Assembly (NCBI GenBank): GCA_964563535.1
Contig: CAZLXP010000001.1
Coordinates: 423 to 64,422 of the forward strand
Source: an uncultured bacterium
GTDB lineage: Bacteria > RBG-13-66-14 > B26-G2 > WVWN01
Length of the DNA stretch: 64,000 nucleotides
Direction: 5' to 3'
The position numbers and the translations under genes were made by a program. Every line of letters begins with the position of its first letter. Position 1 is the first letter of the stretch. Positions 34,653 to 64,000 of the stretch are shown here, in pieces. A model generated the notes under the pieces. The model did not search any database and had not been told where the DNA came from. It saw only the letters and a program-made list of their open reading frames with translations.

Positions 34653-34655
34653 TAA

Positions 34656-36490: not shown

Positions 36491-36525
36491 TTAACGCCTG
36501 AGGAGATAACGATAATAGAAATTAG
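36491..36525 (+). repeat. R8: remnant of the RM-gene 3' end (LTPEEITIIEIS).
   Basis: Matches the GLTDEEI..VEG segment. It is followed at 36531-36563 by a hairpin plus T8 terminator (GGCCTATTCATAGGCCAGTTTTTTTTATTT). Confidence 0.5.
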
Positions 36526-37837: not shown

Positions 37838-37870
37838 GTGGCAGAACTGGCAGACGCAGCGGACTTAAAA
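37838..37870 (+). pseudogene. Fragment of a hicB-like 3' end (...GWQNWQTQRT plus stop).
   Basis: ggggtggcagaactggcagacgcagcggacttaa matches 24856-24889 (gccggggtggcggaacaggcagacgcagcggacttaa). Confidence 0.55.
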
Positions 37871-37931
37871 AACGGCTACGCTGGGATTATTAAGGCGGCC
37901 GCAAGGGGCGCTTTTGTTTCGTGGGCGAGAA

Positions 37932-38049
37932 ATATTTGCATCCCGGCCCTAAGCCTGCTATACTTTTATATATATACCGAAATACGTGAATTAATTCACT
38001 AGTTACCGTAATAAATTAATAATTTCAACCAACCGGAAGGAGACGTTCT
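37932..38049 (+). promoter_or_regulatory. Conserved AT-rich promoter/operator region of the NHL family (copy 2). It contains a perfect 14-bp palindrome, GTGAATTAATTCAC, at 37986-37999.
   Basis: Near-identical to 20589-20704. GGAAGGAG RBS precedes the ATG at 38050. Confidence 0.6.
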
Positions 38050-39009: not shown

Positions 39010-39025
39010 CGGCATCATACAAACA

Positions 39026-39058
39026 AAACGCCGCCCCTCCGGGCGGCCTTTTTTATTT
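39026..39058 (+). terminator. Rho-independent terminator after NHL copy E.
   Basis: aaaaCGCCGCCCctccGGGCGGCCttttttattt. It is followed by about 50 bp conserved with 20447-20495. Confidence 0.7.
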
Positions 39059-43467: not shown

Positions 43468-43482
43468 CGAGAACGCCTTCCT

Positions 43483-44415: not shown

Positions 44416-44713
44416 CTTTACCCCTCCTAGGAGACGCGGCACGGGCCGCCGCAGACTCGGCAACGCGTATCGCGTTGTACGCGAACGGAAAAGCCCCGCA
44501 AAACGCTTCCCGGTCACCGTCTGTTGCGTATCGCCCAAGTGCGGTTTGTAGCCGTCTTAAATAGCGCAAGTTACTACGCCAAACCTTGAGGCATACGTTC
44601 GCATCGTCGATAGTAACGCAACCGGCCACAACCGCGAACTCGTTCGGCGACCCTATACCGATAGGATCGAAACTCATACGGAGCCAAGAGAGGCCGTCGA
44701 AAATATCCGCACC

Positions 44714-45469
44714 TCATAGGAAGTAGGAAGTAACGGCCGCCGGGGTGATTGCACCGAACACGTGGATAGGAAGAAAGAAACCCGCATCATTTAACGCTCG
44801 ACGGATGTTACAGATGGATTTACACCGCTCCACTGCTGAACGTCCAAGCTCGCGTTCTGTTACTCCCAAAACATCGAAGTTACCCAACCGTATGTCGGTA
44901 CCACGGAAAGGTTCAAGGAATTCCCCTGACCCTGTCGGTTTAAGTAAAAAATCAAAAGCAGCGTCGGGGATACAAGAGAAATCTTCGAGTGCGGCGTCTA
45001 CCTGTTTTTCCAACGCATCGTACGTGTCGAAGCTAACTACTATAGTATTCGTTTTCGAAGCTCGGGTATTCGCCTCGCGAAGGTAAGAGCGGTAGTGGTT
45101 TCTTGTCCATGGGGCGGCGGCCGGTAGGGGATAGTAGAAATCGACGGACACGGTAGCCGGTGCCGTCTCGTAGACGCCGCTATCGAGGAGGACGAGATCA
45201 GCTAATTCGTTAAAAGGAACGTCAATGTTCCCGTACTTAAGGTCGAATGCACTTAGTAAGCAAGCGGTGCTAATATCCAGCCTTAGCGCGTCCATAACCA
45301 AACGAATATTAGGGAAACCCCTACTAGAGAATGACGGTACCAGAACCGGCGTAGCCACGCCAAAACGCGCGATACATCGCACTTGAGCGAGATCGTCAAT
45401 CGACACGGCACTCTTTCCTGTCCTGGCAAGAAAAGCACTTCCCACAGGGCGTCTCGTTCCTCCGCTCAC
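44714..45469 (-). CDS. tRNA-guanine-transglycosylase-superfamily protein, short DpdA-like form (candidate 7-deazaguanine DNA transglycosylase).
   Basis: VATPVLVPSFSSRGFPN resembles the TGT motif TPaFmPVgT.g. VLLDSGVYE resembles TGT vDSGGFQ. About 250 aa is compatible with a minimal TIM barrel. The true start is probably downstream of 45396, since the 5' end overlaps the queC-like gene. Confidence 0.4.
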   Translation of the reverse strand: MSGGTRRPVGSAFLARTGKSAVSIDDLAQVRCIARFGVATPVLVPSFSSRGFPNIRLVMDALRLDISTACLLSAFDLKYGNIDVPFNELADLVLLDSGVYETAPATVSVDFYYPLPAAAPWTRNHYRSYLREANTRASKTNTIVVSFDTYDALEKQVDAALEDFSCIPDAAFDFLLKPTGSGEFLEPFRGTDIRLGNFDVLGVTERELGRSAVERCKSICNIRRALNDAGFFLPIHVFGAITPAAVTSYFL

Positions 45470-45998
45470 AACTATAAGTCAACGACAGTGGTACACGATG
45501 CCGACGGGCGTATTTGACGATAGTCCCCTTCGTCATCGAAAGGAAGGGCGCGGAGAAGGTGACGGTGCCTCCTGCGTACCCGTCTAGTAGACGTTGGACA
45601 TCCTCTACGAACGCTGGTGTAGTGTCGTAATAAGGCGACGAAACATGAAGCCCGGTTGCAATGACAAGGGGCCTTTCACGCGAAAGAGCGGCCGCTATAA
45701 GCACTAACAACGCGTTACGGCTAAAATACTCGCCGTCCGCTTGTGGCAGGCGGACTCCTAGCCGAACGCGGCGCAGAGCACAGCTGTAATGGTCGGCGAT
45801 TGCCTGGGCAGCTTCCCACTCACTCCTCCGAGCGGCCTGACCATAGTCTACGAATAAACCATCAACGGAGTCGCCACGTTGGCGGACAAAGGTCGAGAGC
45901 GTTGTGGCAGAGTCAATACCGCCACTAAGCAATACTACGACCTTCGCGACATACTTCGGTGGTTTTCGTCCAAAACGGCGCGGTGGAGTTATTAGCAT
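45396..45998 (-). CDS. queC: QueC-like 7-cyano-7-deazaguanine (preQ0) synthase, PP-loop ATPase.
   Basis: PP-loop SGGxDS in VVLLSGGIDSATTLS. C-terminal Cys cluster (SCERRNETPCGKCFSCQDR) resembles the QueC zinc site. Confidence 0.65.
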   Translation of the reverse strand: MLITPPRRFGRKPPKYVAKVVVLLSGGIDSATTLSTFVRQRGDSVDGLFVDYGQAARRSEWEAAQAIADHYSCALRRVRLGVRLPQADGEYFSRNALLVLIAAALSRERPLVIATGLHVSSPYYDTTPAFVEDVQRLLDGYAGGTVTFSAPFLSMTKGTIVKYARRHRVPLSLTYSCERRNETPCGKCFSCQDRKECRVD

Positions 45999-49273: not shown

Positions 49274-49321
49274 CTAGTAAGGGGTTTACCGGTATTTGTT
49301 CTTGGGCCTATTAAGCCGTTC

Positions 49322-49360
49322 GTGAGCCCATTATGAGCCCATTGAGCCCATTATGAGCCC
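49322..49360. repeat. Short tandem repeat (GAGCCCATT[AT] x about 3.5) in the res upstream region.
   Basis: gtgagcccattatgagcccattgagcccattatgagccc. It lies 50-90 nt 5' of the res start on the minus strand and overlaps the last 3 codons of the AlbA_2 gene. Confidence 0.7.
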
Positions 49361-50745
49361 TTTAAGGAATATTTAGTCCCGCGGCCGGTCGTACCTTCTT
49401 TCTTTAAAACGCCCTTTGCGACGAGGTCTTCCAAATCCCTTGTAGCCGTTGCTTTAGCTACACCGTACTTCGTTTGGTAGGTTTTATTGTCGATACTGCC
49501 TTCGGTTTTGACGAACGCCACGCATTTAATCTGTCGTTCTTTAAGCCCCAGAGATTTTAAGTGGTCGGCCGTGAACGGGTCTTGTGAAAAGAGGGCATTA
49601 AAACCGCCGTTGTCCTCGGAAAAAAGAGGTTCCGGGAGGCCAACCGAACGACACGCTTCAATCATCCTGGTCGTCCCGGTGCCCCACCGTTCAATAAAAC
49701 CCGCGAAATGGAACGCCTGCGCGAGCAAAGGGTTGCGGGGCATAGAAGGGTGACCGGGACGCCGTAGGTCATCGATTGTAATACCGGCAGGCAAGAAGCC
49801 GGGGTTCCAAATCTCCAAGCGGTCTTCGTAAAGGCGGATTTGTATATCGCCAGCGGCGGCGTAATCTCGGTGAGCCAGGGCGTTCAAAACCGCTTCTCTT
49901 AATGCTGGGAGCGGGTATTCCCAAACTTCGTCACGGCGAAATGCTTCCGCGGATAATTCAGACGTGTTTACTGCGCTTACGTTTTTAAGGTTTGCGTGGA
50001 ACCATTCGGTTACCCGTTCGATTTGCACCCAGAGGTTTCCCGTTATCGTCTCGTCGTTTTGTACGCCTCCCGCGACGAACCGGCCGATATGGACCGTCGC
50101 ACCAGGGATATAAATTTGGGGGTTATCGGTAAAGAGAAGGACTCCTGCGTGGTTCAACTGCCCATCTCTAATTAGCGTAAGGTTCCCCAGAATTGTATCG
50201 GTTTCCACCACCGCCGCGGCCGGCATACGGTCCCAGGCGTACCTTCGAAACGAGTCTATGGCAACGGCACTTATACGGTCCGGGTTAATCCCAGACGGTA
50301 AGCTATCCCACGTCGGGCCGTAAAGAGAAAGTAATTTCGCGGCGATTTCTTCGGTCGTCATCAACCGCGTCGTGTTACCTACCCTTTTATAATACCTCCC
50401 CTGGTAGGAGATTAAAACTGAAGACGCCGCGACCTCGATTTTGAATACTACCGAGTCCCCATAAAATAGGCGTTCTACACTCGGATTTAAACCCAAAGCG
50501 CTTATCTGGTCCATCATAGCCGAGAAATCGCGGTCCGATAAGGTAATACCCTTAATAACACCTCGGACGTCAACCCCTAAATACAAAGCGCCGCCGCGGG
50601 TGTTCGCGAAAGCCGCGATCGTTTCTAATCCCGCATCGTTCCACGATTCCTTGAATTCGGTAGTCTCGTCTTCGGTTAACCCGATATTAACCATTGATTC
50701 CCTTACCAATCCGTACCCTCTCGCGTACCGAAGCAGAAGTGCCAC
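49351..50745 (-). CDS. AlbA_2/Schlafen-like DNA-binding domain protein with a C-terminal HATPase_c_4-like and winged-helix region (COG2865-type, often labelled RecG-like transcriptional regulator).
   Basis: N-terminal TEDETTEFKESWNDAGLETIAAFANTRGGALYLGVD is the AlbA_2 signature. It is 464 aa and inserted between mod and res. Confidence 0.6.
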   Translation of the reverse strand: MALLLRYARGYGLVRESMVNIGLTEDETTEFKESWNDAGLETIAAFANTRGGALYLGVDVRGVIKGITLSDRDFSAMMDQISALGLNPSVERLFYGDSVVFKIEVAASSVLISYQGRYYKRVGNTTRLMTTEEIAAKLLSLYGPTWDSLPSGINPDRISAVAIDSFRRYAWDRMPAAAVVETDTILGNLTLIRDGQLNHAGVLLFTDNPQIYIPGATVHIGRFVAGGVQNDETITGNLWVQIERVTEWFHANLKNVSAVNTSELSAEAFRRDEVWEYPLPALREAVLNALAHRDYAAAGDIQIRLYEDRLEIWNPGFLPAGITIDDLRRPGHPSMPRNPLLAQAFHFAGFIERWGTGTTRMIEACRSVGLPEPLFSEDNGGFNALFSQDPFTADHLKSLGLKERQIKCVAFVKTEGSIDNKTYQTKYGVAKATATRDLEDLVAKGVLKKEGTTGRGTKYSLKGS

Positions 50746-50814
50746 GCCGGCTCCTCGAAGGGCGAGTTAATGATGGGTTTATCGACGCCGTTGCGCATCG
50801 CGATATCCGCGTTA

Positions 50815-51714
50815 TTAGTCTCTAAGCCACGTTTCAAATACGGCGGAAAGAGTTTCGACGTGCTCATCAACCATCTGTTTCGCTTCGTCTTTCTCGCCGG
50901 ATTTTAATCGGTCCAATATTTCGTAAAACCATATCTTAGAACGCGCTATTTGAGCAGCGAAATACCAAGCCCCTTGGTTAAAAGATTCGGGCAAAACCCC
51001 GTATTCCAAGGATTTGGTGACGATATTTCTTCTTGCTTCCGCATCTTTTTTAGGTTTAGGCACGCTCGATATTTCGCTTATACGTCCGATCCAAATATCC
51101 ACCGGTTGAAGGAGTTCTCTATTAAGGACGTTTTCGCACTGACCGACTTCTTCGAATAGCCCGTAATAACTGGCAACATCTCTTAAAAAAAACGAAGCGA
51201 TTTTCTCGCCGACGCCGTTCACACCAATAATCCGCTGAAACGCGTCTTTTATTCTACGTTGTTCTATCTGCGTTTTCGCATAACCTATTATTGTCTCTTT
51301 GCCCTCTGGGCCGAAGCGTTCGATTACCGAATCTTGGATCGTTTTATATTCACCTTTCTTAGTTACGTACTTCGTATTCTTTGGGGCGAGCGGATTGGCT
51401 TTAACATTCGCCCGCGGTTCTTCAGTTCCTGGTTCCTGGAAACGCGCCAACTTTTTAATATATTCCCGCCAGATCGCATCCGTCGTTAAATCCGGCGCCC
51501 TTAATACCGTTTCCGCCGCAGCGTAAGCGTAGTCACGAGCCGCCCCTTGTCGTTCGTACGCGTAACCCCATAAGAAAATGGCTAGAGCCTTCCTCTTATC
51601 TTGGAGCGGTTCATCTTTGTTAGTAACGTAACGTCCCCACGTAGGAAACAGGTACCTCGCCCGGTATAACCGCCCTACATCTGCGAAAAACTCGAATAAA
51701 TCCCTTTCGCTCAT
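50815..51714 (-). CDS. Hypothetical protein with a helix-hairpin-helix-like motif (299 aa).
   Basis: IIGVNGVGEKIASFFLRDV resembles an HhH (L..I.GVG...A) element. The rest is unassigned. Confidence 0.35.
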   Translation of the reverse strand: MSERDLFEFFADVGRLYRARYLFPTWGRYVTNKDEPLQDKRKALAIFLWGYAYERQGAARDYAYAAAETVLRAPDLTTDAIWREYIKKLARFQEPGTEEPRANVKANPLAPKNTKYVTKKGEYKTIQDSVIERFGPEGKETIIGYAKTQIEQRRIKDAFQRIIGVNGVGEKIASFFLRDVASYYGLFEEVGQCENVLNRELLQPVDIWIGRISEISSVPKPKKDAEARRNIVTKSLEYGVLPESFNQGAWYFAAQIARSKIWFYEILDRLKSGEKDEAKQMVDEHVETLSAVFETWLRD

Positions 51715-51812
51715 ATCACCTCCGCTAACTCCACAACCTTAATAACCTCGTTACCGCGGAAGTCGATGACCTTCACGGCGACGCGGCTGTGCTCGCCCGG
51801 GTGGAAGGGCGC

Positions 51813-54425
51813 CTACTTCGTGCCGCGCATCCGGGCGAAGGCCTCCTCGTCGATGACGCCGCGCAGCGCCCGGCTGAGCTTGGCCCACGGGTTCTCGCCG
51901 CCCGGGAAGAACGCCTGGCAGACGCAGAAGGTCCGGCCGTCGTAGTCGTGGTCCAGGAACCAGGCGGCGACGTCCCGGCCGCGCGAGGACTTGACCTCGC
52001 CGGTCGTCGGGTCGTAGGTATCGACGCCGCGGAGCTCGGCGACCCAGGTCTTGCCGTGGCTGGCGTGCACGGCCACGTCGGGCTGGCCGAAGACGGTGAA
52101 GAGCTGGCTGCCGCGCGTCGTCTTCAACAGGTCGCCGACGAGGACGTCCGGGCAGACGTTCGCGAGCTCGAGGCGGAGGCCCGGTCGCGGCCGGCTCTCG
52201 ACGAAGGTCGTCACCTCGGCCTCGAAGCCGAAGCCCGCGAAGACGAGCAGGCCGTAGCCGCCGGCCGCCGCCTCGCGAATCGCCTCCTCCACCTGCTTGA
52301 ACGTCACCGGGCCGTAGCGCGGGCCGAAGGAGAACGCGACGAGCTGTTTGTCGCCGTTCACCGCCACCTCGGCCCCGGCGTGCAGGAAGCCCCCCGACTT
52401 CACCGCCCTTATCCCCGGAACGTCGAGCTTCTTGCCGCCGGGGAAGGTGACGCCGTCGCGGCGCAGCAGCTCGACGAGGGTGGCGACGTGGTCGCCGGCG
52501 GGGTCGGCGACGCGGCCTTCACCGCGGCCGCGCCGGCTCAGGTCGTCGTCGCGCTCACCCGGCGCCAGCGCCCCCTCGGGCACTTCCGCGCCGGCGGGAA
52601 CGGGGATGCCCTCGACGGTGAAGGGGCCGGCGACGCGGACGACGTTCCTCTCAACGTCGGGTTGGTCGTAGAGGGTCTCCTGCGGCGCGGCTCGAGCGAT
52701 CTCGTCGTCGATGGCCTGCTGGCGTTTGCGCCGGCCGGCCCACCACTTCTTATGGAGTTCTTTGGCCTCCGCGGGCCAATCCGCCGCGGCCTCGCGTGGG
52801 ACCTCCCACTCCTCCCACTTTTGCCCGAGGGCTTTATTCAACTCGAGGCGGAGGGGCTCGAGATCGAGCTGGTGCTCCTCGTAGAGCTCGTCTATCCGGG
52901 GGTTCTGCGCGATGGACTTGAGCGTGACGTGGGGTACGGCCTTATAGACGAAGCCGCCGCGCGGGCCCTGGTCCGCGTTCGCGAGCTTGTAGTAGTCGTA
53001 GCGGGCGGTGAGGAGGCGCTGGCGCGCGAGGTTGAGGGCGACGTGGGAGGTGTCGCAGGTTATCCAGCGGCGGCCCCACTTCTCGGCGCACCAGGCCGTG
53101 GTGCCGGAGCCGCACGTCGGGTCGAGGACCAAGTCGCCGGGGTCCGTGGTCATCAGGATGCAGCGTTCGATAACTTTAGGAGCTGTCTCTACGACGTACA
53201 ATTTCTGGGCTACGTAGGTACTTACGACTGTATCGGCCCAGTAATTTGTAAAACTTACTAGCGGGAAATCGCTCAAATAACTTTTATAAGCAAGCGTATT
53301 ACCGGCGACGTAGAGCCTATTAGCAAGGCCTAACCGGTCTAGGCCTTCTTTTGTAGTTTTCCAATGGGCTTTCGTAGGGCAATTGAATTCCATTTTTAAA
53401 AAACGATAGGGCTTAGAGCCTTCCGTTGTCGCGCCAGATGAAAAAAGGCTATCCGCGTTAAAACGTTTCAACTCGGTCTCTTTATCATCAGACTTATCTT
53501 CTTTCGTTAATCTCCTAGCGATCCCCGGCGCTTCTTCTACCCAAGTATAAGCGCTCTCAACGGTCCTAACAGCTTTAACCGAAAACAATTCGCGATATTT
53601 GAGAGAACTCATATCCCTAGAATACCAAAGAAGGAAATCAAAAACCGTATCGAGGGTCCGAGACCCTTTCCCGGTAGTTGTTATAAACGATATAATGCAA
53701 ACGAAGTTGGCTCTTCCGAAAACCTCGTCCATTAGCTCCTTAACGTAATGGATATTTTCGTCGCTAATCTGCACGAAGATGGAGCCGGATTCGGCGAGGA
53801 GGTCGCGGGCGAGGAGGAGGCGGTCGCGGAGGTAAGTGAGGTAGGAGTGGATGCCGAGGGTCCAGGTGTCGCGGTAGGCCTTGATCTGCTCGGGCTCGCG
53901 CGTGAGCGAGGCGTCGTCGCCGTCGCGGACGTCGCGCGAGGCCAGCGACGGCTGGAAGTTGGAGTTGTAGCCGACGCCGTAGGGCGGGTCGACGTAGATC
54001 ATCTGGACCTTGCCGGCTATCAGCTCGCGCTCCAACAGCGAGTTCATCACCACCAGCGAGTCGCCCAGGACGAGGCGGTTGGCCCAGTCGACGTCGTGCT
54101 GGTAGAACTTTACGGCGTCGCCCAGCGCCAGCTCCTCCGCGGCGAAGAGGTCGCGCTGGACGTCCTCGCGCGCCGCCGCCCGGAGTATCGCCTTCGAGCT
54201 GACGCGCTCGTGGATGTGCAGCGGGACCGTGTCCACCGCGAACGAGAGGTGCTCGGCCTTCCCGGCCCACACGAGCTGGGGGTCGAGGTGCGGGTCGTAC
54301 GCGTACGTCTTGCGCTCCGGCGCGTACGCGTCGTAGCCGGCCAGGCCGGCCTCCGGGTTGTTGGGCCGCTTCTCGTCGTGGCGGTAGTCGTCTATTTCGA
54401 CGTCTTTCTTCTTGCGGCGGGGCAT
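51813..54425 (-). CDS. mod: Beta-class N6-adenine/N4-cytosine DNA methyltransferase, Type III Mod-like, with an extended C-terminal domain (870 aa).
   Basis: Motif IV IYVDPPYGVGYN precedes motif I LVLDPTCGSGTTAWCA, which is beta-class order as in Mod proteins. It is upstream of, and co-oriented with, res. Confidence 0.65.
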   Translation of the reverse strand: MPRRKKKDVEIDDYRHDEKRPNNPEAGLAGYDAYAPERKTYAYDPHLDPQLVWAGKAEHLSFAVDTVPLHIHERVSSKAILRAAAREDVQRDLFAAEELALGDAVKFYQHDVDWANRLVLGDSLVVMNSLLERELIAGKVQMIYVDPPYGVGYNSNFQPSLASRDVRDGDDASLTREPEQIKAYRDTWTLGIHSYLTYLRDRLLLARDLLAESGSIFVQISDENIHYVKELMDEVFGRANFVCIISFITTTGKGSRTLDTVFDFLLWYSRDMSSLKYRELFSVKAVRTVESAYTWVEEAPGIARRLTKEDKSDDKETELKRFNADSLFSSGATTEGSKPYRFLKMEFNCPTKAHWKTTKEGLDRLGLANRLYVAGNTLAYKSYLSDFPLVSFTNYWADTVVSTYVAQKLYVVETAPKVIERCILMTTDPGDLVLDPTCGSGTTAWCAEKWGRRWITCDTSHVALNLARQRLLTARYDYYKLANADQGPRGGFVYKAVPHVTLKSIAQNPRIDELYEEHQLDLEPLRLELNKALGQKWEEWEVPREAAADWPAEAKELHKKWWAGRRKRQQAIDDEIARAAPQETLYDQPDVERNVVRVAGPFTVEGIPVPAGAEVPEGALAPGERDDDLSRRGRGEGRVADPAGDHVATLVELLRRDGVTFPGGKKLDVPGIRAVKSGGFLHAGAEVAVNGDKQLVAFSFGPRYGPVTFKQVEEAIREAAAGGYGLLVFAGFGFEAEVTTFVESRPRPGLRLELANVCPDVLVGDLLKTTRGSQLFTVFGQPDVAVHASHGKTWVAELRGVDTYDPTTGEVKSSRGRDVAAWFLDHDYDGRTFCVCQAFFPGGENPWAKLSRALRGVIDEEAFARMRGTK

Positions 54426-54465: not shown

Positions 54466-55296
54466 TTACGTTCCGGTAGACGAAGTAGATTCCGCTAAAT
54501 ACGCCCTAGTAGTCAGTAAAAAATCTACTATGGAATTAGTGATCATAAGTATAACGCAAACGGGTATTAATCCTAATTGGTAAAATATGAAAATAAATAA
54601 GGCGTGTATTCCATTATTCCATATCCACACGGTGTAATGGATTGCTTTAGAACGTATATCGACTATAAATAACCATATGGAATTGAATATTAGAAGGGTT
54701 ATTACTAACCTTAAAAAAACCGCGAAATCGCCGAAAGCCGAGCCGCAGATATTGAAAAAAATAAAACCGTGCAACATAAGGAACAAAACATCAACCCAAA
54801 TCGAAAGTTCTTTTAAGCCCTGTTTCGAGAAAATCCTCGGAGTACTTTTAGGCTTAGTGTTACCTAACGAGTCAACTAAAGGTTTTATATTGCAAACCGG
54901 AGCGAATGCGAACCTAACGAGAAATAAAGTACACACTATTAACGGCCACAAATTAAAAACTACGTTAGATAAATAACCCAAGACTGCTGTTAAGGTAACC
55001 GAAAGCGCCTCTTTGGGGGAGTACAACCTTAATTCTAAAATTTCGTAAAAACCCCCTTCTTTATTAGCATCTTCGATTACTGTTTTAAAACCATAAACTA
55101 GGAATATCGAATATAGTATTTCCAGTACTCGAATACACGAATTATAATTCGGCGGGGATGTCCGTTCTTTTAACCCCATAATCGCTATTAATATTGCCCG
55201 TATCCCGTGTCCTGGTCCCGTAGCCGGTGGATTATTGTTACTAGCTTTCCTTCGAGATCGAGCGCCGGTTTTTTTATCTTCCCCTTTTTTCTTCAT
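54466..55296 (-). CDS. Low-GC polytopic membrane protein of unknown function (276 aa).
   Basis: Lys-rich N-terminus, then at least 6 hydrophobic helices (IRAILIAIMGL, LEILYSIFLVYGF, VTLTAVLGYLSNVVFNLWPLIVCTLFLV, IWVDVLFLMLHGFIFFNICG, FAVFLRLVITLLIFNSIWLFIV, HALFIFIFYQLGLIPVCVILMI). Confidence 0.45.
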   Translation of the reverse strand: MKKKGEDKKTGARSRRKASNNNPPATGPGHGIRAILIAIMGLKERTSPPNYNSCIRVLEILYSIFLVYGFKTVIEDANKEGGFYEILELRLYSPKEALSVTLTAVLGYLSNVVFNLWPLIVCTLFLVRFAFAPVCNIKPLVDSLGNTKPKSTPRIFSKQGLKELSIWVDVLFLMLHGFIFFNICGSAFGDFAVFLRLVITLLIFNSIWLFIVDIRSKAIHYTVWIWNNGIHALFIFIFYQLGLIPVCVILMITNSIVDFLLTTRAYLAESTSSTGT

Positions 55297-55480
55297 ATTT
55301 ATTACCTTCCCGAAAAACCCATTAACTCGAGGTGATAAAAGCTAGATCTGTAGGGATAATATAAATGACCCATTCTAAACGCGAACTCCTCTCCGTTTAA
55401 TACTCCGGTTCAACGCTGAACAGCGGGAGGAGGTCGCCGATGAGCTTGTGCTCCAAGTAGAACCCCGTAAATAAACCGAC

Positions 55481-55603
55481 CGCCCCCGGCCTGCGCCGGC
55501 GGGCGGCATAGCGGAGTTGCCTCCGGTCTTTTTCGCGTTCTCGCTCTCGAGCCTCCCTGATTCCATATCCTCATTTTAATCGCCGCGGCGGCCTAAGTCA
55601 AGG
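55481..55603. repeat. Direct repeat, left copy (about 123 bp). Its partner is at 62200-62327.
   Basis: cgcccccggcctgcgccggcgggcggcatagcggagttgcctccggtctttttcgcgttctcgctctcgagcctccctgattccatatcctcattttaatcgccgcggcggcctaagtcaagg is about 85% identical to 62200-62327 in the same orientation. Confidence 0.7.
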
Positions 55604-55653
55604 TATTACGGCAGGAGGTCGGGAATACTATGTTTACGATAATTGGCAAAGTA

Positions 55654-58600
55654 TTAATTACGCGCATTTAGAAGTGGTATTCTAAATACGTCTTTATACG
55701 TGCGCCAGTCCATCTGGCACTCAGGTTTGTACCTATCAATACTGCGTCGTATTGATATATATGCCCATACCTCCATCCTCCGATTATCTGCAATTCGTTC
55801 TAAAATATCTCTTTTGATCTCGAGTAGGAATCCTTCCGATTTCGGCTTATGACGCCGACGGCCCTGATCGAAAGCTTCCTGCCACTCTATTGATCTAACG
55901 GCTTTATGCCCGTTCATATTATATCCAAACTCGTCGCCAGCCGCCGGTAGGAAGCCAACCTCCTCCGCTATTGAATGATTTAATGCGGCGAGGTCCAGAG
56001 TACGCGTTCCCCGAAATGCCCGTCGAGTGATAACTACGAGCGGGAAGAAGCCAGCGACGGAAGGTGGTGCGTTACTTCTCGCTAATTCGTACCTATAAAG
56101 ATTCCGAAAACGCGATAATGAGCCTTCCCGGATTTCGTCGTAAGCTTCGTCAACTGTCGGGACCGTTCCACCCCGAGGTATGCCGAACGTGATAACCCAG
56201 GTAAGGTTGGCGCGTTGCGTATCCGGGCTTAACCGCTCGCCCGTTCTTTGTTCGGTATTTTCGAATAACGTGATCCACTCTGGATCTCGCGAATCGTAGT
56301 GGGCTTGTAGTCCTCCAACATCGGCGAATTCCAAGAATTCATCATCGGTAAGTCCATCGTTAATCCATGAAATCCGGTCGGGGCGAATAACCCGTTTTAC
56401 TAAATTATCAGTTGGATCCGAAAGCCTTAATATATCCTCGTTATATTGGAGGAAATCGAATTCTATCTGACCTGTTTCTACTAACGATTGTATAGCGCGG
56501 TTTAATGCCGACCGCGTTTCCCGTCCGAATTCGCCTTCTATCTCGATTAAATCGAAATTCGTATTAATGTTATATTCTTGATAGACAGCGTATTCGTCCT
56601 TAAGACCTTCTTCTAGCCGCGGATAAAGCCGTGAAAGTTCCGTAAGGAAACGTTTTTTGAGTTCCTCTCCTGGGGCTCCTTTGCCTAATACGTTCATCAT
56701 CCACTCTATGTACTTCGGGAATTGAACCTTTTCTCCCGCTTTCATTTCCAATTGCGGAAGTCGTCGCGAGATAATACGCGGCGACTCGACTAAACCGCGA
56801 GAACACGCGAGTGTCTTGGTCGGAATATCCGCTCCTCGTTGGGCCGCGACCTCTATAGATTTATCAATAGTAATCCTTAGATTACGATGGTTTTCGTGCT
56901 GGCCGAGTTTTACAAGTCGGGATGCGAAACGTTCAGCTACTCCCGTGTTATAGATGAAGACCGAAAACATTAAAGTCGTAACATACTCCTTCTGTCCGTC
57001 CGTTAAACTTCCCCAAGTATCCAGGATTACTTCTATCAACTCTACCCGTTCTGTTAATAATCGGAAAAGGGCATCCTGGGCTAATAGGCGGAGACCTACG
57101 ACAGGGTAATCGAATAACTCGATTAAATAACTCAGGCACGCGTTTTCGAAGGTACTCGATCGCCCGTTAGTCAACCACCCTAAGTCCGAAGGTTTTTCTA
57201 TTATACCGGCTACGAGGCGTTTATTATACTCCGACCAAATATCGTAAAGTTTTAACGCGTCGAAACTCGAGGTTTTGGCGACGAATTTCAACAAATTATC
57301 GAGTTGGTAAATTATCGACTCGGGGTACTTTTGGTACTCCCGCCGGAAACCTTCGAATAAAACCTCTATTGACTTTTCTTTGTCGAACTCCAGGAGTTTA
57401 GTGAAAATAATATGGCCAAGCTCCCCGTAAGATTCGAGGTATTTACCTAGAGCCTCCCAAGCTTCGACTAAATCCGTAACGGCACGGTCCGGATCGGATG
57501 CTTCCCAACGACAAGCCACTTCGTACAAACCTACAGCTTTAGTCCCGGATCTACACCGTTGGCGATAGAACGCCTCCCATTCTTCCAACGCCGCTGAAGG
57601 TGCCGATTTCACCCATCCCGGCAATCGACTCCGTACTTCTTCATCAAGCGACAACGGGATATCTACGGTTCGAACTAAACTGTCAAGCCACCCTTCGACA
57701 TCGAAGTACCCTTCAAAGTCTTCGGCCGTAACGGCGACTGGTAAAATATCTGATATCGCGACGACGAACTCGTTAAAGGCTTGGCGAAGGATTTCCCTTG
57801 TTCGTAGTCCTCCCTCTAGAGGTGCGTCCATTGCTTTATCGGTTAATTCTCCGAAATATACGTCGATGTGTTTGTCTTCGATATCCTCCTCTTCTCGGCA
57901 GGCGGCTTTCGCCAGAGCCATTTTTATATCTGGGCGGGTACTATCTAATTCCCGGAGGCGTCCTTTTCGGGTTTCTTCACGACACGCTTCATCAAATATC
58001 GTTTCTAGTTCACTCAAAACGTCGCCCGAAAAACCTTCGAGCTCTTCCGCCCATCTTTCCCTTTCGGAGGATGCCCCAGGGTATAATCTGGTATCCGCGC
58101 CTTCTTCGCTTTTAGGCGGGTACTTCGCGTAATCACTACTTACTTCTAAGGGCGCATTTCCAAGCGAGATCCACAATTCCGCCCAACGTCCTAACTCCTC
58201 AGGCATATCTTTCTCAACAAGGAGTACGTAGCGCCAGAATTCGTAAGCGTTTATAGCAGTACCAATATCGTCGTTTTTAAGGGCCGCTGAATAAACGGAG
58301 AACATAGCTGGCTTCGTTTGGTCGTTGAACCACCGGTAATCCTCCCATCGGTCTAAAGTTTCTGCAAGAGCTAGAACGAAGCGGCGGTCCACGTCGGTGT
58401 TCTCCGCGAGTACGCGTACGATATCACTTAGAGTAACATCTCGGAAAACCAGTTCCTCTTCGCGACTAAGAGCCTTTAAAGCTACCCTTGGGTCGATTTT
58501 CGAAATGAATTCGATTAGGCCCCCGATAGCTGTAGCTACTGTTTTCGCTTGCGTAACGCCGTCGAGTTTATGAGCGAGTGTTAATTGTTCTCGAACCCTA

Positions 58601-61600
58601 TTAATCGAACCTTCGGGGTCTTGGTTGTGGGCGAATTCGAGTGCCGTAATAATATAATTAAACTGGTAATCCTTCCGCCAATATACTCCACAGCCGATAT
58701 TTAATAAATCCGCCCAGACCCTATCCGCTTCATCAGAGAATCCGCACCGGCCCCACGCCGAAGCGCAGGCCACTAACCAATTCGTAGCCGATGAAGCTTC
58801 TTCATTTTCCCTTACGCTTACTTCCACTATCTCGATTAGGTTACGGATCAACCCCTTCGAAACGTCGTCGTCCCCCATATTATAAACGGCTTCCGCTAAA
58901 GCTAATGTAGCCTTCGGATATAAGACAGCCCTCTTTCCATCCCGGCCTCGAAGCCATAACCGGGTAATTAGCGCGACGTCCGCTTCTGTTAGAATTGAAG
59001 TTATACACGACCAAACTTGTTCGAATAAAACATAGGCGCTTCGCCTGTAGAGTCCCTCGGTAAAATCGAACCGGCGGTCCAAACCTTCGAATAAATACGT
59101 TGGAGGATCTAACCCTTCCAATATACCTTCTATAATCGCGACAGCGGAATCTCCGTCAACTAATTCGCGAGTGTTGCGAACCCACAACCACGCAAGTCGC
59201 CCGATGGCGGAAACAACCGTTTTTACGGGTTCGGTTAATCCGGTCGTGGTCGCTTCGAACCACGGAAATCCGGTATCTTCTTGGAGGAAATAAATCCTCA
59301 ATTGATCGTAAAGGGCGTAGATGTCGTCATTAAATTCAACCCCCGACCTCTCGGAACCCGAAAGGCTAGTTGGTAGCCGGGGTCGTGGGGCGGGGGCTGT
59401 TCGCGGTACGTCGTTTAGTACTAACTCCGGTAACTCAAGATATAACGCGTTCCGGAAGTCATCCGGGATTTCCGATAGGTTTAGTTCTCCTAACTCCGCC
59501 TTGGCTTCGTTTCCTACTCCCCTAAGCGTTAATATTAAACAGATTGCGGCGCTAGCTGTAGCCCTTACTATCGACCCCACCCTATCAGAATCGCGGATAC
59601 TCTCTAATGCGTCAATTATACCGCGTTCGGCATACTCACGTACGACTGCCATTTGGATTTTGGTATTTATCTTGGCGCCCTCAATATCCGTGACGGTTTC
59701 TCTCGTATAACGGCCGTGCAAAGGTTTGGTCTGCCAAACCGTATCTTCTATGCGCCGGAGTAATTCGACCGGGTTTCCTACGTGACTTTTCGCGCAGTAC
59801 CATTTTATATTTGCTTGGACGTCGGACCCGGGATCGGGCGCTTCCCCTAACCCAGCTTCTATAATACGTCGTGGTAGTATCTTACCTCTCGATTTACGAT
59901 ACGAGAGAGCGAATTCAGCGAACTCGGTCGGACTACACTTCCTACGTTCACCGTCCCAGACTCTCCTCGTCGCTTCTTCATCGCGCCCCATATCCAAGAG
60001 TAATACCGCTAACTCGTTTTCCGACAATCCAATATTATGGTCTACAAGTGCGACCGTCTGTTTTAGAAGCGATATTCTAACGAACTCCAACACATCGTGG
60101 GTGAATGACGCGGCTTGCCATGCATAATCAAGGTTCCTCTGTATCTCGTAGATAGGCCTAAAGTTTTTCCACGCCCTTTCTAACCAATTACCGTCGCATA
60201 TTTCCAGAACCTTAGTATATTCGCCGGCTTCAACCGCGTGTCGAAATTGGTGACGCCAAGTCTCATCCCTATTAGGGTGTTGTTCGTACCAACTCGTCAT
60301 CGCTACAGCGATTTCTTTTTGTATGTCACTCGTACGTTCGTTTACGAAATCGGCGAAACTATTATGCTTAATCGCCCAGCTTTTGGCGTCAGAAACTCGT
60401 AGGAGATGTTTCGTACGCCTCAGCGTCTGGTGGACTTCTAGGAGTGTGGTTTCAGGTCTTACGAAAGTTAATACGTCCTTTAAAGTTTCGGGCGTAATAA
60501 ACTCGTTAAGCGCTGCCAAGAACGCTAGGATATGAACCGTTAGGGGATCGGATTCTAAATCAGCCCAAAGGTAACGGAAGTAGTGATCAATCTTCTCACC
60601 TCGTAGCGTTGGCGCCGATTCGAGATACGTTTTTTGATCGAGCTTACTCATCCCTTGTAATTGGCTAGCTAGGATATCCAGTATAAGGGGGACTCCTCGA
60701 GTTATTTCGCAGACCAACCTTAGGAATTCGCCAGAAAGATTAACGCCGCGGCGCCGGAAAAACTCGAACACTTGATCTTGAGTAAATCCGGGGACCTGGA
60801 TATGACGCTTCGGATCACTTTCTATATGTTCGCGGACCGCCGAAGGTAAAACATCCGGATATTGCGAACTTAAAACGATCAATACGTTCTTCGGTAGTGT
60901 CGCGTCTAGTACATTCGTTAATGGTTGTTCGAGTGTTTCCCGGCTTTTACGATGTACGTGGTCCAAACCATCGACGACGAAGATAACCCGGAGGCCACTT
61001 TTCGAGAGTCTCGATAACCAATTATTAAGCTGTTCTTGATTTAATTCGCCCCAGGGGTTCGGGAATTCGAAATGAGGGAAGGCGTTTCGTAAACTAATAC
61101 AAATCGATTGCGTAAATATATCGCCCCGGAGCCGGTCGTTTCCTAAACTCTCGTCGTTAGGGACGAAGCAATAGTACCCGAAAAGGATGCCCGGGTTTTC
61201 TCTCCGGTACATAGAAAGTGCCGTCGATTTCCCACTGCCGGGCTCCCCCTCAAGGAATACGAACCCTCTATCTAGCGTCTTAAGTGATTCGCTTATTTTG
61301 TCGAAAAGTGCCGGTGTAGGAACCCATAACTCCTCGTCAACAGGGAACTCCTGACTAACATGAATAGCGAAATGCCTATCTAATCCTAATTCTTTGAGGA
61401 CAACTTTCTTATCTACCTCTTGACGGGAGATAGACCAATTTACTATCGCGTCCGTTAATTTATAGAATTGCGTTTTATCTAGACCTAGCGTTGCAAGTTG
61501 GGCGAGTACTCTATATCTCATCGTTTCGCGGTCGGGTTGACCGAACTCGAAACGCAAACATTTAAGGAAACGCGACAATTCTTCGGGATCACGGAGGTCG

Positions 61601-62094
61601 GTCTGTTCAAGAATACAGTCTAGGATCTCCGCGTATTCATCGTATAACTCAGCCTGTTCGATATCGGTGACATCGGGGTTCTCGTTAAAAGGTTTTTGGA
61701 ATTCGCTGATAAAATCCCTGAGGCTTTTCTTATATTTACCCAGTCTAGTCCCGGCCCTCCGGTTAGAAAAAAGAACAACTTCTACAGGGTGATCGCCTTC
61801 GGCGATTTGCTTAAAACCGCGCACTAGTTTCCCTAGTAACGAAATCGAATCCCCGGCGCTCGTTAAAAGGTTAATTAGGGTAAAAGAGAATGAGTCATCC
61901 TCAGAATATTTAACTTGGATGAAAGAATCTTTGTCGTCGGCTTTTACAATAATATCGTCGATATATTTGGCCAGTTGGGGGTTTTCTAAAATAATCGAGT
62001 TATATCTACTACCGGTTTCTATTAACGTCAGGACGTACGACGCTGCCACAATATTCTGGTAGTAGAATCCACCTTGCGCGTCAGCTCCTGCCAT
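55654..62094 (-). CDS. Giant STAND/NACHT NTPase (2146 aa) with an N-terminal Cap4/DUF4297-like nuclease-type domain and a very long C-terminal helical-repeat region. Avs/NLR-like candidate antiviral sensor.
   Basis: N-terminus MAGADAQGGFYYQNIVAASYVLTLI...DDIIVKADDKDSFIQVKYS (GGxxYQ start and D...xK, reminiscent of DUF4297). Walker A FLEGEPGSGKSTALSMY; Walker B/NACHT VIFVVDGLDHVHRK. About 1600 aa of helical repeats follow. Confidence 0.65.
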   Translation of the reverse strand: MAGADAQGGFYYQNIVAASYVLTLIETGSRYNSIILENPQLAKYIDDIIVKADDKDSFIQVKYSEDDSFSFTLINLLTSAGDSISLLGKLVRGFKQIAEGDHPVEVVLFSNRRAGTRLGKYKKSLRDFISEFQKPFNENPDVTDIEQAELYDEYAEILDCILEQTDLRDPEELSRFLKCLRFEFGQPDRETMRYRVLAQLATLGLDKTQFYKLTDAIVNWSISRQEVDKKVVLKELGLDRHFAIHVSQEFPVDEELWVPTPALFDKISESLKTLDRGFVFLEGEPGSGKSTALSMYRRENPGILFGYYCFVPNDESLGNDRLRGDIFTQSICISLRNAFPHFEFPNPWGELNQEQLNNWLSRLSKSGLRVIFVVDGLDHVHRKSRETLEQPLTNVLDATLPKNVLIVLSSQYPDVLPSAVREHIESDPKRHIQVPGFTQDQVFEFFRRRGVNLSGEFLRLVCEITRGVPLILDILASQLQGMSKLDQKTYLESAPTLRGEKIDHYFRYLWADLESDPLTVHILAFLAALNEFITPETLKDVLTFVRPETTLLEVHQTLRRTKHLLRVSDAKSWAIKHNSFADFVNERTSDIQKEIAVAMTSWYEQHPNRDETWRHQFRHAVEAGEYTKVLEICDGNWLERAWKNFRPIYEIQRNLDYAWQAASFTHDVLEFVRISLLKQTVALVDHNIGLSENELAVLLLDMGRDEEATRRVWDGERRKCSPTEFAEFALSYRKSRGKILPRRIIEAGLGEAPDPGSDVQANIKWYCAKSHVGNPVELLRRIEDTVWQTKPLHGRYTRETVTDIEGAKINTKIQMAVVREYAERGIIDALESIRDSDRVGSIVRATASAAICLILTLRGVGNEAKAELGELNLSEIPDDFRNALYLELPELVLNDVPRTAPAPRPRLPTSLSGSERSGVEFNDDIYALYDQLRIYFLQEDTGFPWFEATTTGLTEPVKTVVSAIGRLAWLWVRNTRELVDGDSAVAIIEGILEGLDPPTYLFEGLDRRFDFTEGLYRRSAYVLFEQVWSCITSILTEADVALITRLWLRGRDGKRAVLYPKATLALAEAVYNMGDDDVSKGLIRNLIEIVEVSVRENEEASSATNWLVACASAWGRCGFSDEADRVWADLLNIGCGVYWRKDYQFNYIITALEFAHNQDPEGSINRVREQLTLAHKLDGVTQAKTVATAIGGLIEFISKIDPRVALKALSREEELVFRDVTLSDIVRVLAENTDVDRRFVLALAETLDRWEDYRWFNDQTKPAMFSVYSAALKNDDIGTAINAYEFWRYVLLVEKDMPEELGRWAELWISLGNAPLEVSSDYAKYPPKSEEGADTRLYPGASSERERWAEELEGFSGDVLSELETIFDEACREETRKGRLRELDSTRPDIKMALAKAACREEEDIEDKHIDVYFGELTDKAMDAPLEGGLRTREILRQAFNEFVVAISDILPVAVTAEDFEGYFDVEGWLDSLVRTVDIPLSLDEEVRSRLPGWVKSAPSAALEEWEAFYRQRCRSGTKAVGLYEVACRWEASDPDRAVTDLVEAWEALGKYLESYGELGHIIFTKLLEFDKEKSIEVLFEGFRREYQKYPESIIYQLDNLLKFVAKTSSFDALKLYDIWSEYNKRLVAGIIEKPSDLGWLTNGRSSTFENACLSYLIELFDYPVVGLRLLAQDALFRLLTERVELIEVILDTWGSLTDGQKEYVTTLMFSVFIYNTGVAERFASRLVKLGQHENHRNLRITIDKSIEVAAQRGADIPTKTLACSRGLVESPRIISRRLPQLEMKAGEKVQFPKYIEWMMNVLGKGAPGEELKKRFLTELSRLYPRLEEGLKDEYAVYQEYNINTNFDLIEIEGEFGRETRSALNRAIQSLVETGQIEFDFLQYNEDILRLSDPTDNLVKRVIRPDRISWINDGLTDDEFLEFADVGGLQAHYDSRDPEWITLFENTEQRTGERLSPDTQRANLTWVITFGIPRGGTVPTVDEAYDEIREGSLSRFRNLYRYELARSNAPPSVAGFFPLVVITRRAFRGTRTLDLAALNHSIAEEVGFLPAAGDEFGYNMNGHKAVRSIEWQEAFDQGRRRHKPKSEGFLLEIKRDILERIADNRRMEVWAYISIRRSIDRYKPECQMDWRTYKDVFRIPLLNARN

Positions 62095-62199
62095 AAATCA
62101 ACGCAACCTCTTTCCTTAGTTCGATCCTACCGGTTTGATCGCAGCGGTCCTGTTTGATAACAACGTATTTTGCTGATACCCGCCCGCAAAGTTGACGAA

Positions 62200-62327
62200 A
62201 CGCCGCCCCCAGCCTGAGCCGGCGGGCGGCTTAGTGGAGTTGCCTCCGATCCTTTTCGCGTTCCTGTTCTCGAGCCTCCGTGAGTCCATACCGTCATTTT
62301 AATCGTCACTACGGCCTAAGTCAAGCG
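62200..62327. repeat. Direct repeat, right copy (about 128 bp). Its partner is at 55481-55603.
   Basis: See 55481-55603. This copy lies about 105 bp upstream of the STAND gene start on the minus strand. Confidence 0.7.
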
Positions 62328-62488: not shown

Positions 62489-64000
62489 TTACGCGCCGAA
62501 GACCTCCTTGATCAAGTCGTAGGCGGCGTTGATGCCGCCCTCCGCGGTCTCGTCGGTGGTGAGGAGGACGCCGCCCGGGCCGCCCTCTTCGTTTTCCTCG
62601 TAGGGGATGATGCCGTTCTCGCGGTACCACTTCTCCTTGCGTTCCCACTTCCTGCGATATTCGCGGTCGTGGAGGAGACCGCAATGCTCCCAGTAGTACG
62701 TGAAGCCGGTCTCGGCGTCGGCGACGGTGAAATCCGGCCACACGGTCCGGCCGTCTTTCCCGGTGAACGGCTTCTCGTAGCTGTATTCCACGCCGGCGTG
62801 TTTCAGGGCGTTAGCGATGATGACCTCCGACTTGGAGGCGACGAGCTCGCCGTTCTCGGTGAGATAAACTCGGTTGCGGTCGAGGGTTCGCGGCCGCCCT
62901 GGCTTCACCTCCACTACGCACGGGTCGGGGGCGTCGAAGAGGTTAGTCAGGCGTTCGGCAACGACGCTTTCGCCGGCGGAGGCATAGCTTTTAAGTTGGT
63001 AGACGTCGCCCTGGTAGAGAACGACGACGCGGTCCTTTTGGCGGGTGAGGGCGGTGTAGAGAAGTTCGCGCGACAGGAGCCAGCACGGCTCCGGGAGGAC
63101 GAGGATGACGACGTCGAAATCGCTCCCCTGCGCCTTGTGAACGGTGAGGGCGTAAGCGAGTTCAAGGTACGTATCGCCGTCTTCGGCGAAGTGCTTCCCC
63201 GAATACTTATAGAGGATTCCCGGTTGGGAGGAGAACTCGACTTCGAGTTGATACGGCGCCCGTTTTAATTTCTTCCGCTTAGCCTCGTTAACGCACTCGC
63301 CCACGACGACGCCGATTTCGCCGTTAGCGACGTACTCGAGGGGTTCGTCCACCTGCGGCGCCCATAGTTGGTAATGGCCGTGGTTGATGACGTTTATGAC
63401 CTTCTCGCCGTAGACGATGCCCTCCGGGCCGATTGGCCGCGGTATATCGCGGCGCCAACCCTCTTTAACCTGCGCGCGGGCAATCGTATTCGCTTGGAAA
63501 CGACGGTGGATCATCCGGTTGATTTCCGCGACGCCGTGCGCCAGGCCGCGGACCGGCGAGAGGATTTGCCAGTCGTCGGCGCGCGCGCCGGCGCCGGCGT
63601 TGAAGTAAACGCGGTCGCTATCCTTCCAGGGTTCGCCGCCGAGAGCGCGCGCGAAACCGACCTGGTCGTCGGGGCCATCGAGTTGTAGCTCCTCTACGAT
63701 AACGTTCAGCAACCGCTCGCGCAGCTCATCCGGAGTGGACCATTTTTCGAAACGTACGTGCCGCGCTTTGCCGGTCGCGACGCGCGCGAAAATGTCGTCC
63801 GCGCCCGGGTCGAGCGCTCCGCCGCCGAACCAGTCGGCGAGGGCGAGGTCGTCGCGGCGGTCTTCCTCGTGCGCCGGTTGCTGGCGGCATAACACCGTGA
63901 GCTCGGCGTAACCGCGTCCGACGCGCGGCGGCGCCATCGTTTCGGCGTCGGCGGGCCGCAACTGCTCGACGATATCGACGAAGGGCCGCCCCGCGCCGAT
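62489..64000 (-). CDS. C-terminal part of an SF1 helicase (RecD/UvrD-like) with a C-terminal restriction-endonuclease-fold/DUF559-like domain. Partial: the frame is open past the window end.
   Basis: Helicase motif VI-like LAYALTVHKAQGSDFDVVILVL. The C-terminal segment reads SEVIIANALKHAGVEYSYEKPF...RTVWPDFTV...YYWEHCG. The track's apparent start is a TTG in a frame that stays open to position 64000. Confidence 0.5.
   Translation of the reverse strand: MGAGRPFVDIVEQLRPADAETMAPPRVGRGYAELTVLCRQQPAHEEDRRDDLALADWFGGGALDPGADDIFARVATGKARHVRFEKWSTPDELRERLLNVIVEELQLDGPDDQVGFARALGGEPWKDSDRVYFNAGAGARADDWQILSPVRGLAHGVAEINRMIHRRFQANTIARAQVKEGWRRDIPRPIGPEGIVYGEKVINVINHGHYQLWAPQVDEPLEYVANGEIGVVVGECVNEAKRKKLKRAPYQLEVEFSSQPGILYKYSGKHFAEDGDTYLELAYALTVHKAQGSDFDVVILVLPEPCWLLSRELLYTALTRQKDRVVVLYQGDVYQLKSYASAGESVVAERLTNLFDAPDPCVVEVKPGRPRTLDRNRVYLTENGELVASKSEVIIANALKHAGVEYSYEKPFTGKDGRTVWPDFTVADAETGFTYYWEHCGLLHDREYRRKWERKEKWYRENGIIPYEENEEGGPGGVLLTTDETAEGGINAAYDLIKEVFGA

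Follow-up and report, generated by a model that had tools for sequence, protein, structure and literature searches.

The window analysed here, a 64,000-nucleotide stretch of DNA from an uncultured bacterium (contig CAZLXP010000001.1), carries a giant gene that is flanked on both sides by an imperfect direct repeat. The open reading frame (ORF) of 2146 amino acids (aa) was confirmed at 55654..62094 on the minus strand with an ATG start, and its translation contains the motifs GGFYYQ, DDKDSFIQVK, GEPGSGKS and VVDGLDH exactly as described in a first-pass annotation made from the sequence alone. The ORF encodes an intact single-gene antiviral sensor-nuclease of the Avs type, that is, a member of the STAND class (signal transduction ATPases with numerous domains). 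The gene and the parts of its product are arranged as follows:

55654..62094, minus strand: Avs-type STAND gene coding for a Cap4 nuclease, a NACHT-like NTPase, a solenoid and a C-terminal alpha/beta domain; GC content 0.474, GC content at third codon positions (GC3) 0.47.
61360..62094, minus strand: Cap4/DUF4297-type PD-(D/E)xK nuclease domain (~aa 1–245), with the catalytic block D46, D47...Q60-V-K62 at 61909–61959.
60295..61332, minus strand: STAND/NACHT-like NTPase module (~aa 255–600), with Walker A GEPGSGKS at 61225–61248 and Walker B VVDGLDH at 60958–60978.
56290..60294, minus strand: TPR-like alpha-helical solenoid (~aa 600–1935), the presumed sensor scaffold, delimited from the AlphaFold2 (AF2) model and the Foldseek match to 8dgc.
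55657..56289, minus strand: C-terminal alpha/beta domain (~aa 1936–2146, about 200 aa) with the strongly conserved motif IEWQEAFDQGRRRH.

The N-terminal domain was matched by Pfam family PF14130 (Cap4_nuclease, DUF4297) at aa 2–118, scoring 39 bits against a gathering score of 26.2, and PADLOC returned LmuA and SAVED-PDDEXK effector matches on the N-terminus. An N-terminal profile aligned to Cap4 of E. cloacae (EcCap4; Protein Data Bank (PDB) entry 7yib, E 2.5e-5), and Foldseek also matched the nuclease region to 7yia and 7yib. In the alignment, the DD pair and the Q-x-K motif of the family fall on the DD and Q72-x-K74 of Cap4, with K62 corresponding to K74, the active-site residue that is replaced in the K74A mutant structure of EcCap4 (7yia). 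Across 33 aligned family members, Q13, D46, D47, Q60 and K62 do not vary. Since the residues of the Cap4-type active site are both aligned and invariant, a nuclease active site is present. The first-pass annotation had allowed that the domain might lack nuclease catalytic residues, or that the protein might group with non-defence regulatory STANDs; neither was found, as D46, D47, Q60 and K62 are kept and the architecture is that of an Avs protein.

The NTPase module passed the Pfam NACHT cutoff (33.3 bits vs. a gathering score of 26.7) and was also matched by AAA_22, and the PADLOC model Avs1b matched the same region with E 1.1e-37. The conserved winged-helix histidine is present as H577 in the motif HNSF. 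The residues invariant among the 33 family members include those of Walker A (G283-S290; G283, K289, S290), Walker B (D375-H379; D375, D378, H379), H577 and S579. The Foldseek matches of the model half containing the NTPase include Avs3, Apaf-1 and plant nucleotide-binding leucine-rich repeat receptors (NLRs).

AF2 models were built from the family alignment in two pieces, residues 1–960 and 947–2146. Both are confident: the first reached a predicted local distance difference test score (pLDDT) of 83.5, and the second a pLDDT of 86.4 with a predicted template modelling score (pTM) of 0.76, showing a long alpha-solenoid followed by an alpha/beta domain. The first-pass annotation had described ~1600 aa of helical repeats after the NTPase; a helical solenoid does follow there, but it covers only ~1,300 aa and gives way to the distinct alpha/beta domain of ~200 aa. 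In this C-terminal domain N1998, E2003, R2028, W2071, R2080 and G2088 are invariant among the 33 members, and nearly invariant residues extend to aa 2130. In a Foldseek search against the PDB, the structure of SeAvs3 bound to the PhiV-1 terminase (8dgc) ranked first for both models, with E 6.4e-16 for aa 1–960 and E 8.4e-12 (TM 0.50) for aa 947–2146 against chain A; for the latter, the next matches were generic solenoids with E > 1e-3. With both Pfam cutoffs passed and SeAvs3 as the only specific structural match, the proposed combination of a Cap4-like N-terminus and a NACHT P-loop in an Avs architecture holds. Taken together, the Pfam, AF2 and Foldseek results reveal the tripartite Avs plan of an effector, a STAND NTPase and a large C-terminal sensor.

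The family of this protein is rare and uniform. Among 5.8 billion protein clusters, a search recovered the identical protein, from an NCBI contig of 79,895 bp, and ~69 homologues of 2,116–2,193 aa that align over 99–100% of the query with 25–50% identity; hosts with a name are, among others, Geomonas, Photobacterium, Shewanella, Luteimonas, Tamlana, Planctomycetota and Chloroflexota. A phmmer search with the C-terminal 1,200 aa found only 120 of 1.84 billion cluster representatives, essentially the ~2,140-aa family itself, and nearly all full-length phmmer matches measured 2,130–2,190 aa with a constant match position. The family counts ~100 representatives among 1.84 billion protein clusters. 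At this locus and at the homologue loci, the protein is always encoded by a stand-alone gene. The neighbours of the homologues comprise NurA/HerA-like, Dam, HNH, Eco57I-type and PLD-SNF2 genes at one locus (L001), a Gabija-like OLD and UvrD pair, a restriction enzyme and GmrSD at the Geomonas locus (L014), and toxin-antitoxin pairs, an integrase and IS605 at two others (L004 and L016).

We regard the protein as a sensor-nuclease of the Avs type that falls in the Avs1/Avs3-like structural group, within a rare uniform family of its own; this filing follows from the profile matches, the AF2/Foldseek structure and the literature on Avs1–3 taken together. We see in it a new and rare member of an already known kind, and ordinary as such. 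By sequence, membership in Avs1b is denied by the curated thresholds, and membership in Avs3 by the sequence comparison itself. The data show directly which domains the protein has, that its catalytic and Walker residues are conserved, that it resembles SeAvs3 in structure over the whole length, and that its gene lies in a defence island.

The published work on related proteins allows a mode of action to be proposed. Avs1–3 recognise the large terminase, a structure similar to that of Avs3 is predicted for Avs1, and the C-terminal sensor common to Avs2 and Avs3 binds the ATPase of the terminase (PMC13601566); the Cap4 effectors of SeAvs3 and SeAvs7 are double-stranded DNA nucleases activated by tetramerisation (PMC13581612). 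By analogy with these systems, ligand binding, oligomerisation, nuclease activity and phage protection would be expected of the 2146-aa protein. The solenoid and the C-terminal alpha/beta domain, the latter a candidate equivalent of the Avs2/Avs3 C-terminal sensor in the light of PMC13601566, would bind a conserved phage protein as in SeAvs3, and binding would release the autoinhibition of the STAND protein. The NACHT-like NTPase would then use ATP to assemble oligomers (tetramers in Avs3, Avs4 and Avs7), in which the Cap4-type nuclease domains of the N-termini, brought together, would degrade double-stranded DNA and abort the infection. Among phage proteins, the large terminase is the leading guess for the trigger, which by this analogy we hold at a little under an even chance.

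The second subject of this analysis is the repeat around the gene. Its two copies, their elements and the ORF behind the second copy lie as follows:

62203..62325, minus strand: upstream repeat copy, GC content 0.593, with a -35 hexamer TTGACT at 62319–62324 and a -10 hexamer TAAAAT at 62296–62301.
62236–62247 and 62203–62230, minus strand: hairpins of the upstream copy, a small one (GGAG-GCAA-CUCC) and a 12-bp GC hairpin, respectively; the copy ends 108 nt before the ATG.
55480..55602, minus strand: downstream repeat copy, GC content 0.642, with the -35 hexamer at 55596–55601 and the -10 hexamer at 55573–55578.
55513–55524 and 55480–55507, minus strand: the small hairpin and the GC hairpin of the downstream copy, the latter followed by UCGGUUUAUUU.
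54466..55296, minus strand: hydrophobic multi-pass membrane-like ORF of 276 aa, GC content 0.375, located behind the second repeat copy and separated by a 40-nt gap from the restriction–modification (R-M) gene Mod.

The copies are 123 nt long, align without gaps and are 86% identical. A blastn comparison of the upstream against the downstream flank of the gene gave E = 3e-38, which puts the repeat far beyond chance. The imperfect direct repeats reported by the first-pass annotation are therefore real, with coordinates shifted by 1–3 nt. They do flank a single gene, but the bracketing, described there as precise, is loose: 108 nt separate the upstream copy from the start codon, and the downstream copy begins 51 nt past the stop codon and ends 183 nt before the 276-aa ORF. 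Neither nhmmer nor blastn found copies beyond the two in the window.

Read on the strand of the gene, each copy consists of one base, TTGACT, 17 nt, TAAAAT, ~55 nt, the GGAG-GCAA-CUCC hairpin and the 12-bp GC hairpin, after which it ends, and the edges of the repeat coincide with the -35 hexamer and the last base of the GC hairpin. Within the 8.4-kb region, no promoter-like site on the gene's strand is better than these, and neither the STAND ATG nor the 276-aa ORF has another candidate upstream of it there. Sites scoring at least 10/12 turn up roughly every 8 kb of strand across the window, and others of them directly precede genes, such as the one at 27106 before a gene starting at 27156. 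Both hexamers are identical between the copies, while the 17-nt spacer accounts for 4 of the 17 differences. The three substitutions in the predicted stems exchange GC and GU pairs in the minus-strand RNA; in that of the opposite strand they would produce A·C mismatches. Past the STAND stop codon, the hairpin of the downstream copy, followed by a U-rich tail, is the one terminator-like element. In the upstream copy a good U-tract is missing, and the hairpin can therefore be no more than a leaky terminator. The GGAGG of the leader has no start codon after it. Since each copy runs from a promoter-like site to a GC hairpin and stands 5' of a gene, the repeat resembles a promoter/leader module that was duplicated. 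The reading as a leader peptide or coding repeat was rejected: an overlapping ORF begins within the -10 box, and in it all differences between the copies would be non-synonymous, showing that this ORF is not coding.

The same anatomy could be read as a free-standing small RNA gene of ~100 nt, with promoter, transcript and terminator, whose paralogous copies flank the STAND gene or regulate neighbouring genes in cis or in trans. The repeat spans exactly the distance from the -35 hexamer to the terminator-like hairpin, it is non-coding, the downstream copy has its U-rich tail, the GNRA (GCAA) loop of the small hairpin is kept in both copies, and the stem changes are wobble-compatible on the minus strand only. 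Against such a gene, the folding energy of the repeat is no better than that of shuffled sequences (z of -1.1 to -1.4), Rfam 15 gave no match at gathering thresholds and only hits with E ≥ 1.3 and scores far below gathering in E-value mode, the upstream copy is without a proper U-tract, and the genes downstream of the copies have no other promoter candidate. No homologous copy appeared in genome, metagenome, viral, plasmid or phage collections either. We therefore regard a small RNA gene as decidedly improbable.

An intergenic site, a size of ~123 nt, internal hairpins and an outward-facing promoter are typical of miniature inverted-repeat transposable elements (MITEs), enterobacterial repetitive intergenic consensus (ERIC) sequences and Correia-like elements. 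The repeat has all of these traits, and in principle it could be a dispersed element common in the genome, with its two copies at the STAND gene being incidental. Yet the window holds just two copies in 64 kb, both adjoining the STAND gene, and the element is without terminal inverted repeats. Two exact-pattern scans of 185,579 species genomes gave no match; of two metagenome scans, the first gave none, and the second, looser one gave three matches that share just a generic terminator hairpin of ~30 nt. A scan of viral contigs was likewise empty, and blastn found no match in plasmids and phages. The generic dispersed repeat that the first-pass annotation had kept in mind as an objection was thus not seen, with two copies in the window and no homologous copy in public collections, and we give this explanation a very slight chance.

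The composition of the locus has to be viewed against its neighbours, as the 64-kb window is a defence island in which further systems surround the STAND gene:

41926–44538, minus strand: cyclic-oligonucleotide-based antiphage signalling system (CBASS), consisting of a CD-NTase (PADLOC cyclase, E 5.8e-113) and an effector with a Cap17-like N-terminal domain and a PNP-family nucleosidase (E 3.5e-154).
46487–54425, minus strand: Type III-like R-M operon with Res (46487–49273), a Schlafen/AlbA2 protein, a 299-aa ORF and Mod (51813–54425).
62489–64000, minus strand: PDC-S68 helicase ORF upstream of the STAND gene, running past the end of the window.

PDC-S68, Mod and Res have a GC content of 0.63–0.64 and a GC3 of about 0.8. 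The STAND gene, at the values given above, lies far lower, the intergenic pieces inside its segment have GC contents of 0.41 and 0.47, the 276-aa ORF has 0.375, and the repeats, at 0.59–0.64, resemble the host. From these values, the order along the genes is host DNA, module, foreign STAND segment (55603–62202), module, foreign 1-kb segment (54466–55479) and host Mod. The low-GC DNA begins and ends at the edges of the host-GC repeats, which is one point in favour of a cassette-like history. Mechanism aside, such a layout speaks for the module as a marker of insertion junctions.

The first-pass annotation had gone further and suggested that the gene was delivered as a single-gene cassette by site-specific recombination, or is bounded by attL/attR-like sites. 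In this scenario the repeats would be the products of site-specific or Campbell-type integration of a circular STAND cassette carrying its own copy of the target. The direct repeats do bracket exactly one gene, the enclosed 6.6 kb is low in GC between host-like repeats and outer flanks with composition steps at the repeat edges, and the evenly spread differences between the copies are what the integration of a diverged target copy would leave. In addition, a second array in the window (27–36.5 kb) has repeated segments that likewise separate small foreign ORFs. However, no integrase or recombinase was found among the tested ORFs at 24–38 kb and 39–64 kb, and no tRNA or tmRNA that could serve as a target lies in the window. 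The copies share at most 14 identical nt in a row, and their AT and GC variants show no clear switch point; a search for a single crossover found no clean two-block mosaic. The attC features are missing, both the RYYYAAC/GTTRRRY cores and the element-wide imperfect palindrome, and none of five homologue loci has flanking repeats. No empty site turned up in the collections, which contain no genome closely related to the host. Neither the STAND nor the Mod protein has an exact counterpart in the contig index, and all contigs with related Mod-Res genes end ~230 nt inside Mod, short of the upstream region. With no recombinase, tRNA or attC features, no repeats at the homologue loci and no related copy, an att-site origin is unproven; apart from the composition steps, nothing speaks positively for the cassette delivery as proposed, and we consider it unlikely.

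Two specific forms of this idea were tried and rejected. An attC or integron cassette does not fit, as the repeat has local hairpins only, without R''/R' cores and without IntI; its terminal sequences are CTTGACTTAGGC and GGGGGCGG. A tRNA-type att site does not fit either, with no tRNA in the window, no adjacent recombinase and no long identical core.

The interpretation we favour, with somewhat better than even confidence, is the joint one of an Avs-type sensor-nuclease and a repeat that is a duplicated promoter/leader module. The 123-nt module would be a duplicated promoter and 5' leader whose hairpin could act as a leaky terminator or insulator, and its copies would mark the junctions of two foreign, horizontally acquired insertions. 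Each foreign gene would receive the same promoter: the STAND gene on one side, and the low-GC orphan ORF leading into the Type III-like R-M operon on the other. Possible routes to the duplication are Campbell-type insertion, homologous exchange and plain duplication.

Several observations weigh against this joint interpretation. On the side of the protein, sequence searches of the PDB with the single sequence (phmmer), the full-length profile and the C-terminal-domain profile, 8dgc being included, found no match to SeAvs3 or to any solved sensor, and the Avs1b equivalog model NF041810 scored 100.7 bits vs. a cutoff of 1,500, aligning to aa 262–712 only. On the side of the repeat, the order of promoter and terminator-like hairpin would equally suit a small RNA gene, and the upstream hairpin lacks the U-rich tail of the downstream one. 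The low-GC edges at the repeat edges fit an insertion or recombination origin equally well. Identity of all 12 hexamer positions is not significant alone at 86% overall identity, the two available copies contain no compensatory base changes, and the full 5' untranslated regions (UTRs) fold no better than shuffled sequences (z of about -0.4).

A bolder extension is that in this uncultured lineage the module is a landing pad for gene capture free of an integrase in cis, with single foreign defence genes inserted directly behind a copy of the module and duplicating it each time. If this were true, the module would supply both expression and insulation, and the 27–36.5 kb array would be a second product of the same process; we rate it a long shot. 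In a weaker variant, the conserved leader of ~100 nt would be a new cis-regulatory RNA that co-regulates adjacent defence genes.

As to the remaining contents of the window, the 276-aa ORF had no match in Pfam, PADLOC, NCBIfam or PHROGs, and among 5.8 billion clusters it matched only itself. Its one other occurrence is on a 2.1-kb Logan contig with 100% identity to the window. The ORF may encode a genuine orphan membrane protein, or it may be spurious, lying in an AT-rich insert.

In the Type III-like operon, the Schlafen-AlbA2 protein carries HATPase_c_4, and the ResIII helicase has a weak TnsA-like nuclease match. The operon recurs in other metagenomes at 92–95% DNA identity (L011–L013), with other downstream neighbours (M16 peptidases) and a divergent central segment of Mod (window 53178–53748, low GC), which is probably the target-recognition domain. 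The PDC-S68 ORF at 62489–64000 matches only the C-terminal part of the PADLOC model (positions 764–1209 of 1221, E 1.7e-169), and its homologues reach an identity of at most ~53%. A QueC-like ORF at 45396–45998 adjoins the CBASS.

Further away, at 27156–36500 on the plus strand, lies a Type IIG R-M gene of 959 aa (Eco57I, N6_Mtase, MmeI_Mtase, HSDR_N), followed by five to six repeats of its own 3'-terminal coding segment (..VALVEEMLxLHKR.. or ..YELYGLTDEEIRIVEG at the stop codon). These repeats separate small unrelated low-GC ORFs, including weak cyclase-like, DUF3800 and weak DSPc-like ones. The array has the appearance of cassettes inserted one after another at the 3' end of the gene, or of a set of alternative C-termini; no recombinase was found in the 24–38 kb around it. 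The Type IIG region is flanked by paralogous arrays of NHL-repeat beta-propeller genes with a period of 141 nt (47 aa), at 20677–24457 and 36578–39054, ~16 kb apart. Both blocks share a conserved C-terminal tail ending in ..LGRVKALFK at the stop codon, followed by a terminator-like hairpin.

Overall, these results add a rare, deep-branching lineage to the Avs1/Avs3-like phage sensors. As it keeps the structural plan of Avs3 with almost no sequence similarity, the protein offers a useful test of how far the recognition of terminase or other phage proteins reaches. If the repeat is a shared promoter/leader, two neighbouring defence units would be expressed from one control element; if it marks insertion junctions, it would point to a route for slotting single defence genes into islands. 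The repeat is of local interest, and neither reading would change the current understanding unless more copies or an empty site were found.

Among known systems, the closest in structure is SeAvs3 of Salmonella enterica (PDB 8dgc), a terminase-sensing STAND protein with a Cap4 effector. The parts follow each other in an identical order (2,028 vs. 2,146 aa), and Foldseek found structural similarity across effector, NTPase and sensor in both model halves. The difference lies in the sequence: identity in the structural alignment is just 12–14%, there is no detectable sequence homology, and no PADLOC Avs3 model matched.

In terms of sequence profiles, the best match is Avs1b (AVAST type 1; NCBIfam NF041810, PADLOC PDLC02159), which over the NTPase reached E 1.1e-37 (PADLOC) and 3.4e-29 (NCBIfam) and has a similar length of 1,924–1,931 profile positions. 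However, the PADLOC match is limited to aa 261–713 (profile positions 207–659 of 1,924), and the effector and sensor regions have no profile match. Against the lengths of SeAvs3, of the Avs1b profiles and of the ~69 homologues, the protein is not unusually large, as it had been called in the first-pass annotation.

End-to-end homology was found with a second tier of Cap4-NACHT proteins of ~2,020 aa, such as MYD19900.1 of Rhodothermaceae, WP_343021995.1 of Flavobacterium and WP_157509761.1 of Leifsonia. The two families align with an hhalign probability of 100% (E 8e-129, 1,925 aligned columns) and have the motifs DD..QVKW, HEFPVD, DGLDHV, FHNSF and GV..RKDYQ in common, while the profile identity is just 16%. 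The ~2,020-aa proteins also match PADLOC Avs1b in the NTPase region only.

The nuclease fold and its DD and QxK active site are shared with Cap4, the CBASS effector that joins a DUF4297 nuclease to SAVED (7yib/7yia). Cap4 is activated by a cyclic oligonucleotide through SAVED, whereas in the 2146-aa protein a STAND NTPase and a putative protein-sensing solenoid are joined to the nuclease.

Finally, the arrangement of the repeats recalls integron cassettes, such as those with the ~125-bp Vibrio repeats (VCRs), in that one gene lies between direct repeats of ~120 nt and the neighbouring gene is preceded by the same repeat. It differs from them in lacking IntI, R''/R' core sites and an element-wide imperfect palindrome. 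Moreover, attC sites follow promoterless ORFs, whereas the repeat described here carries a promoter-like sequence that faces the downstream gene.

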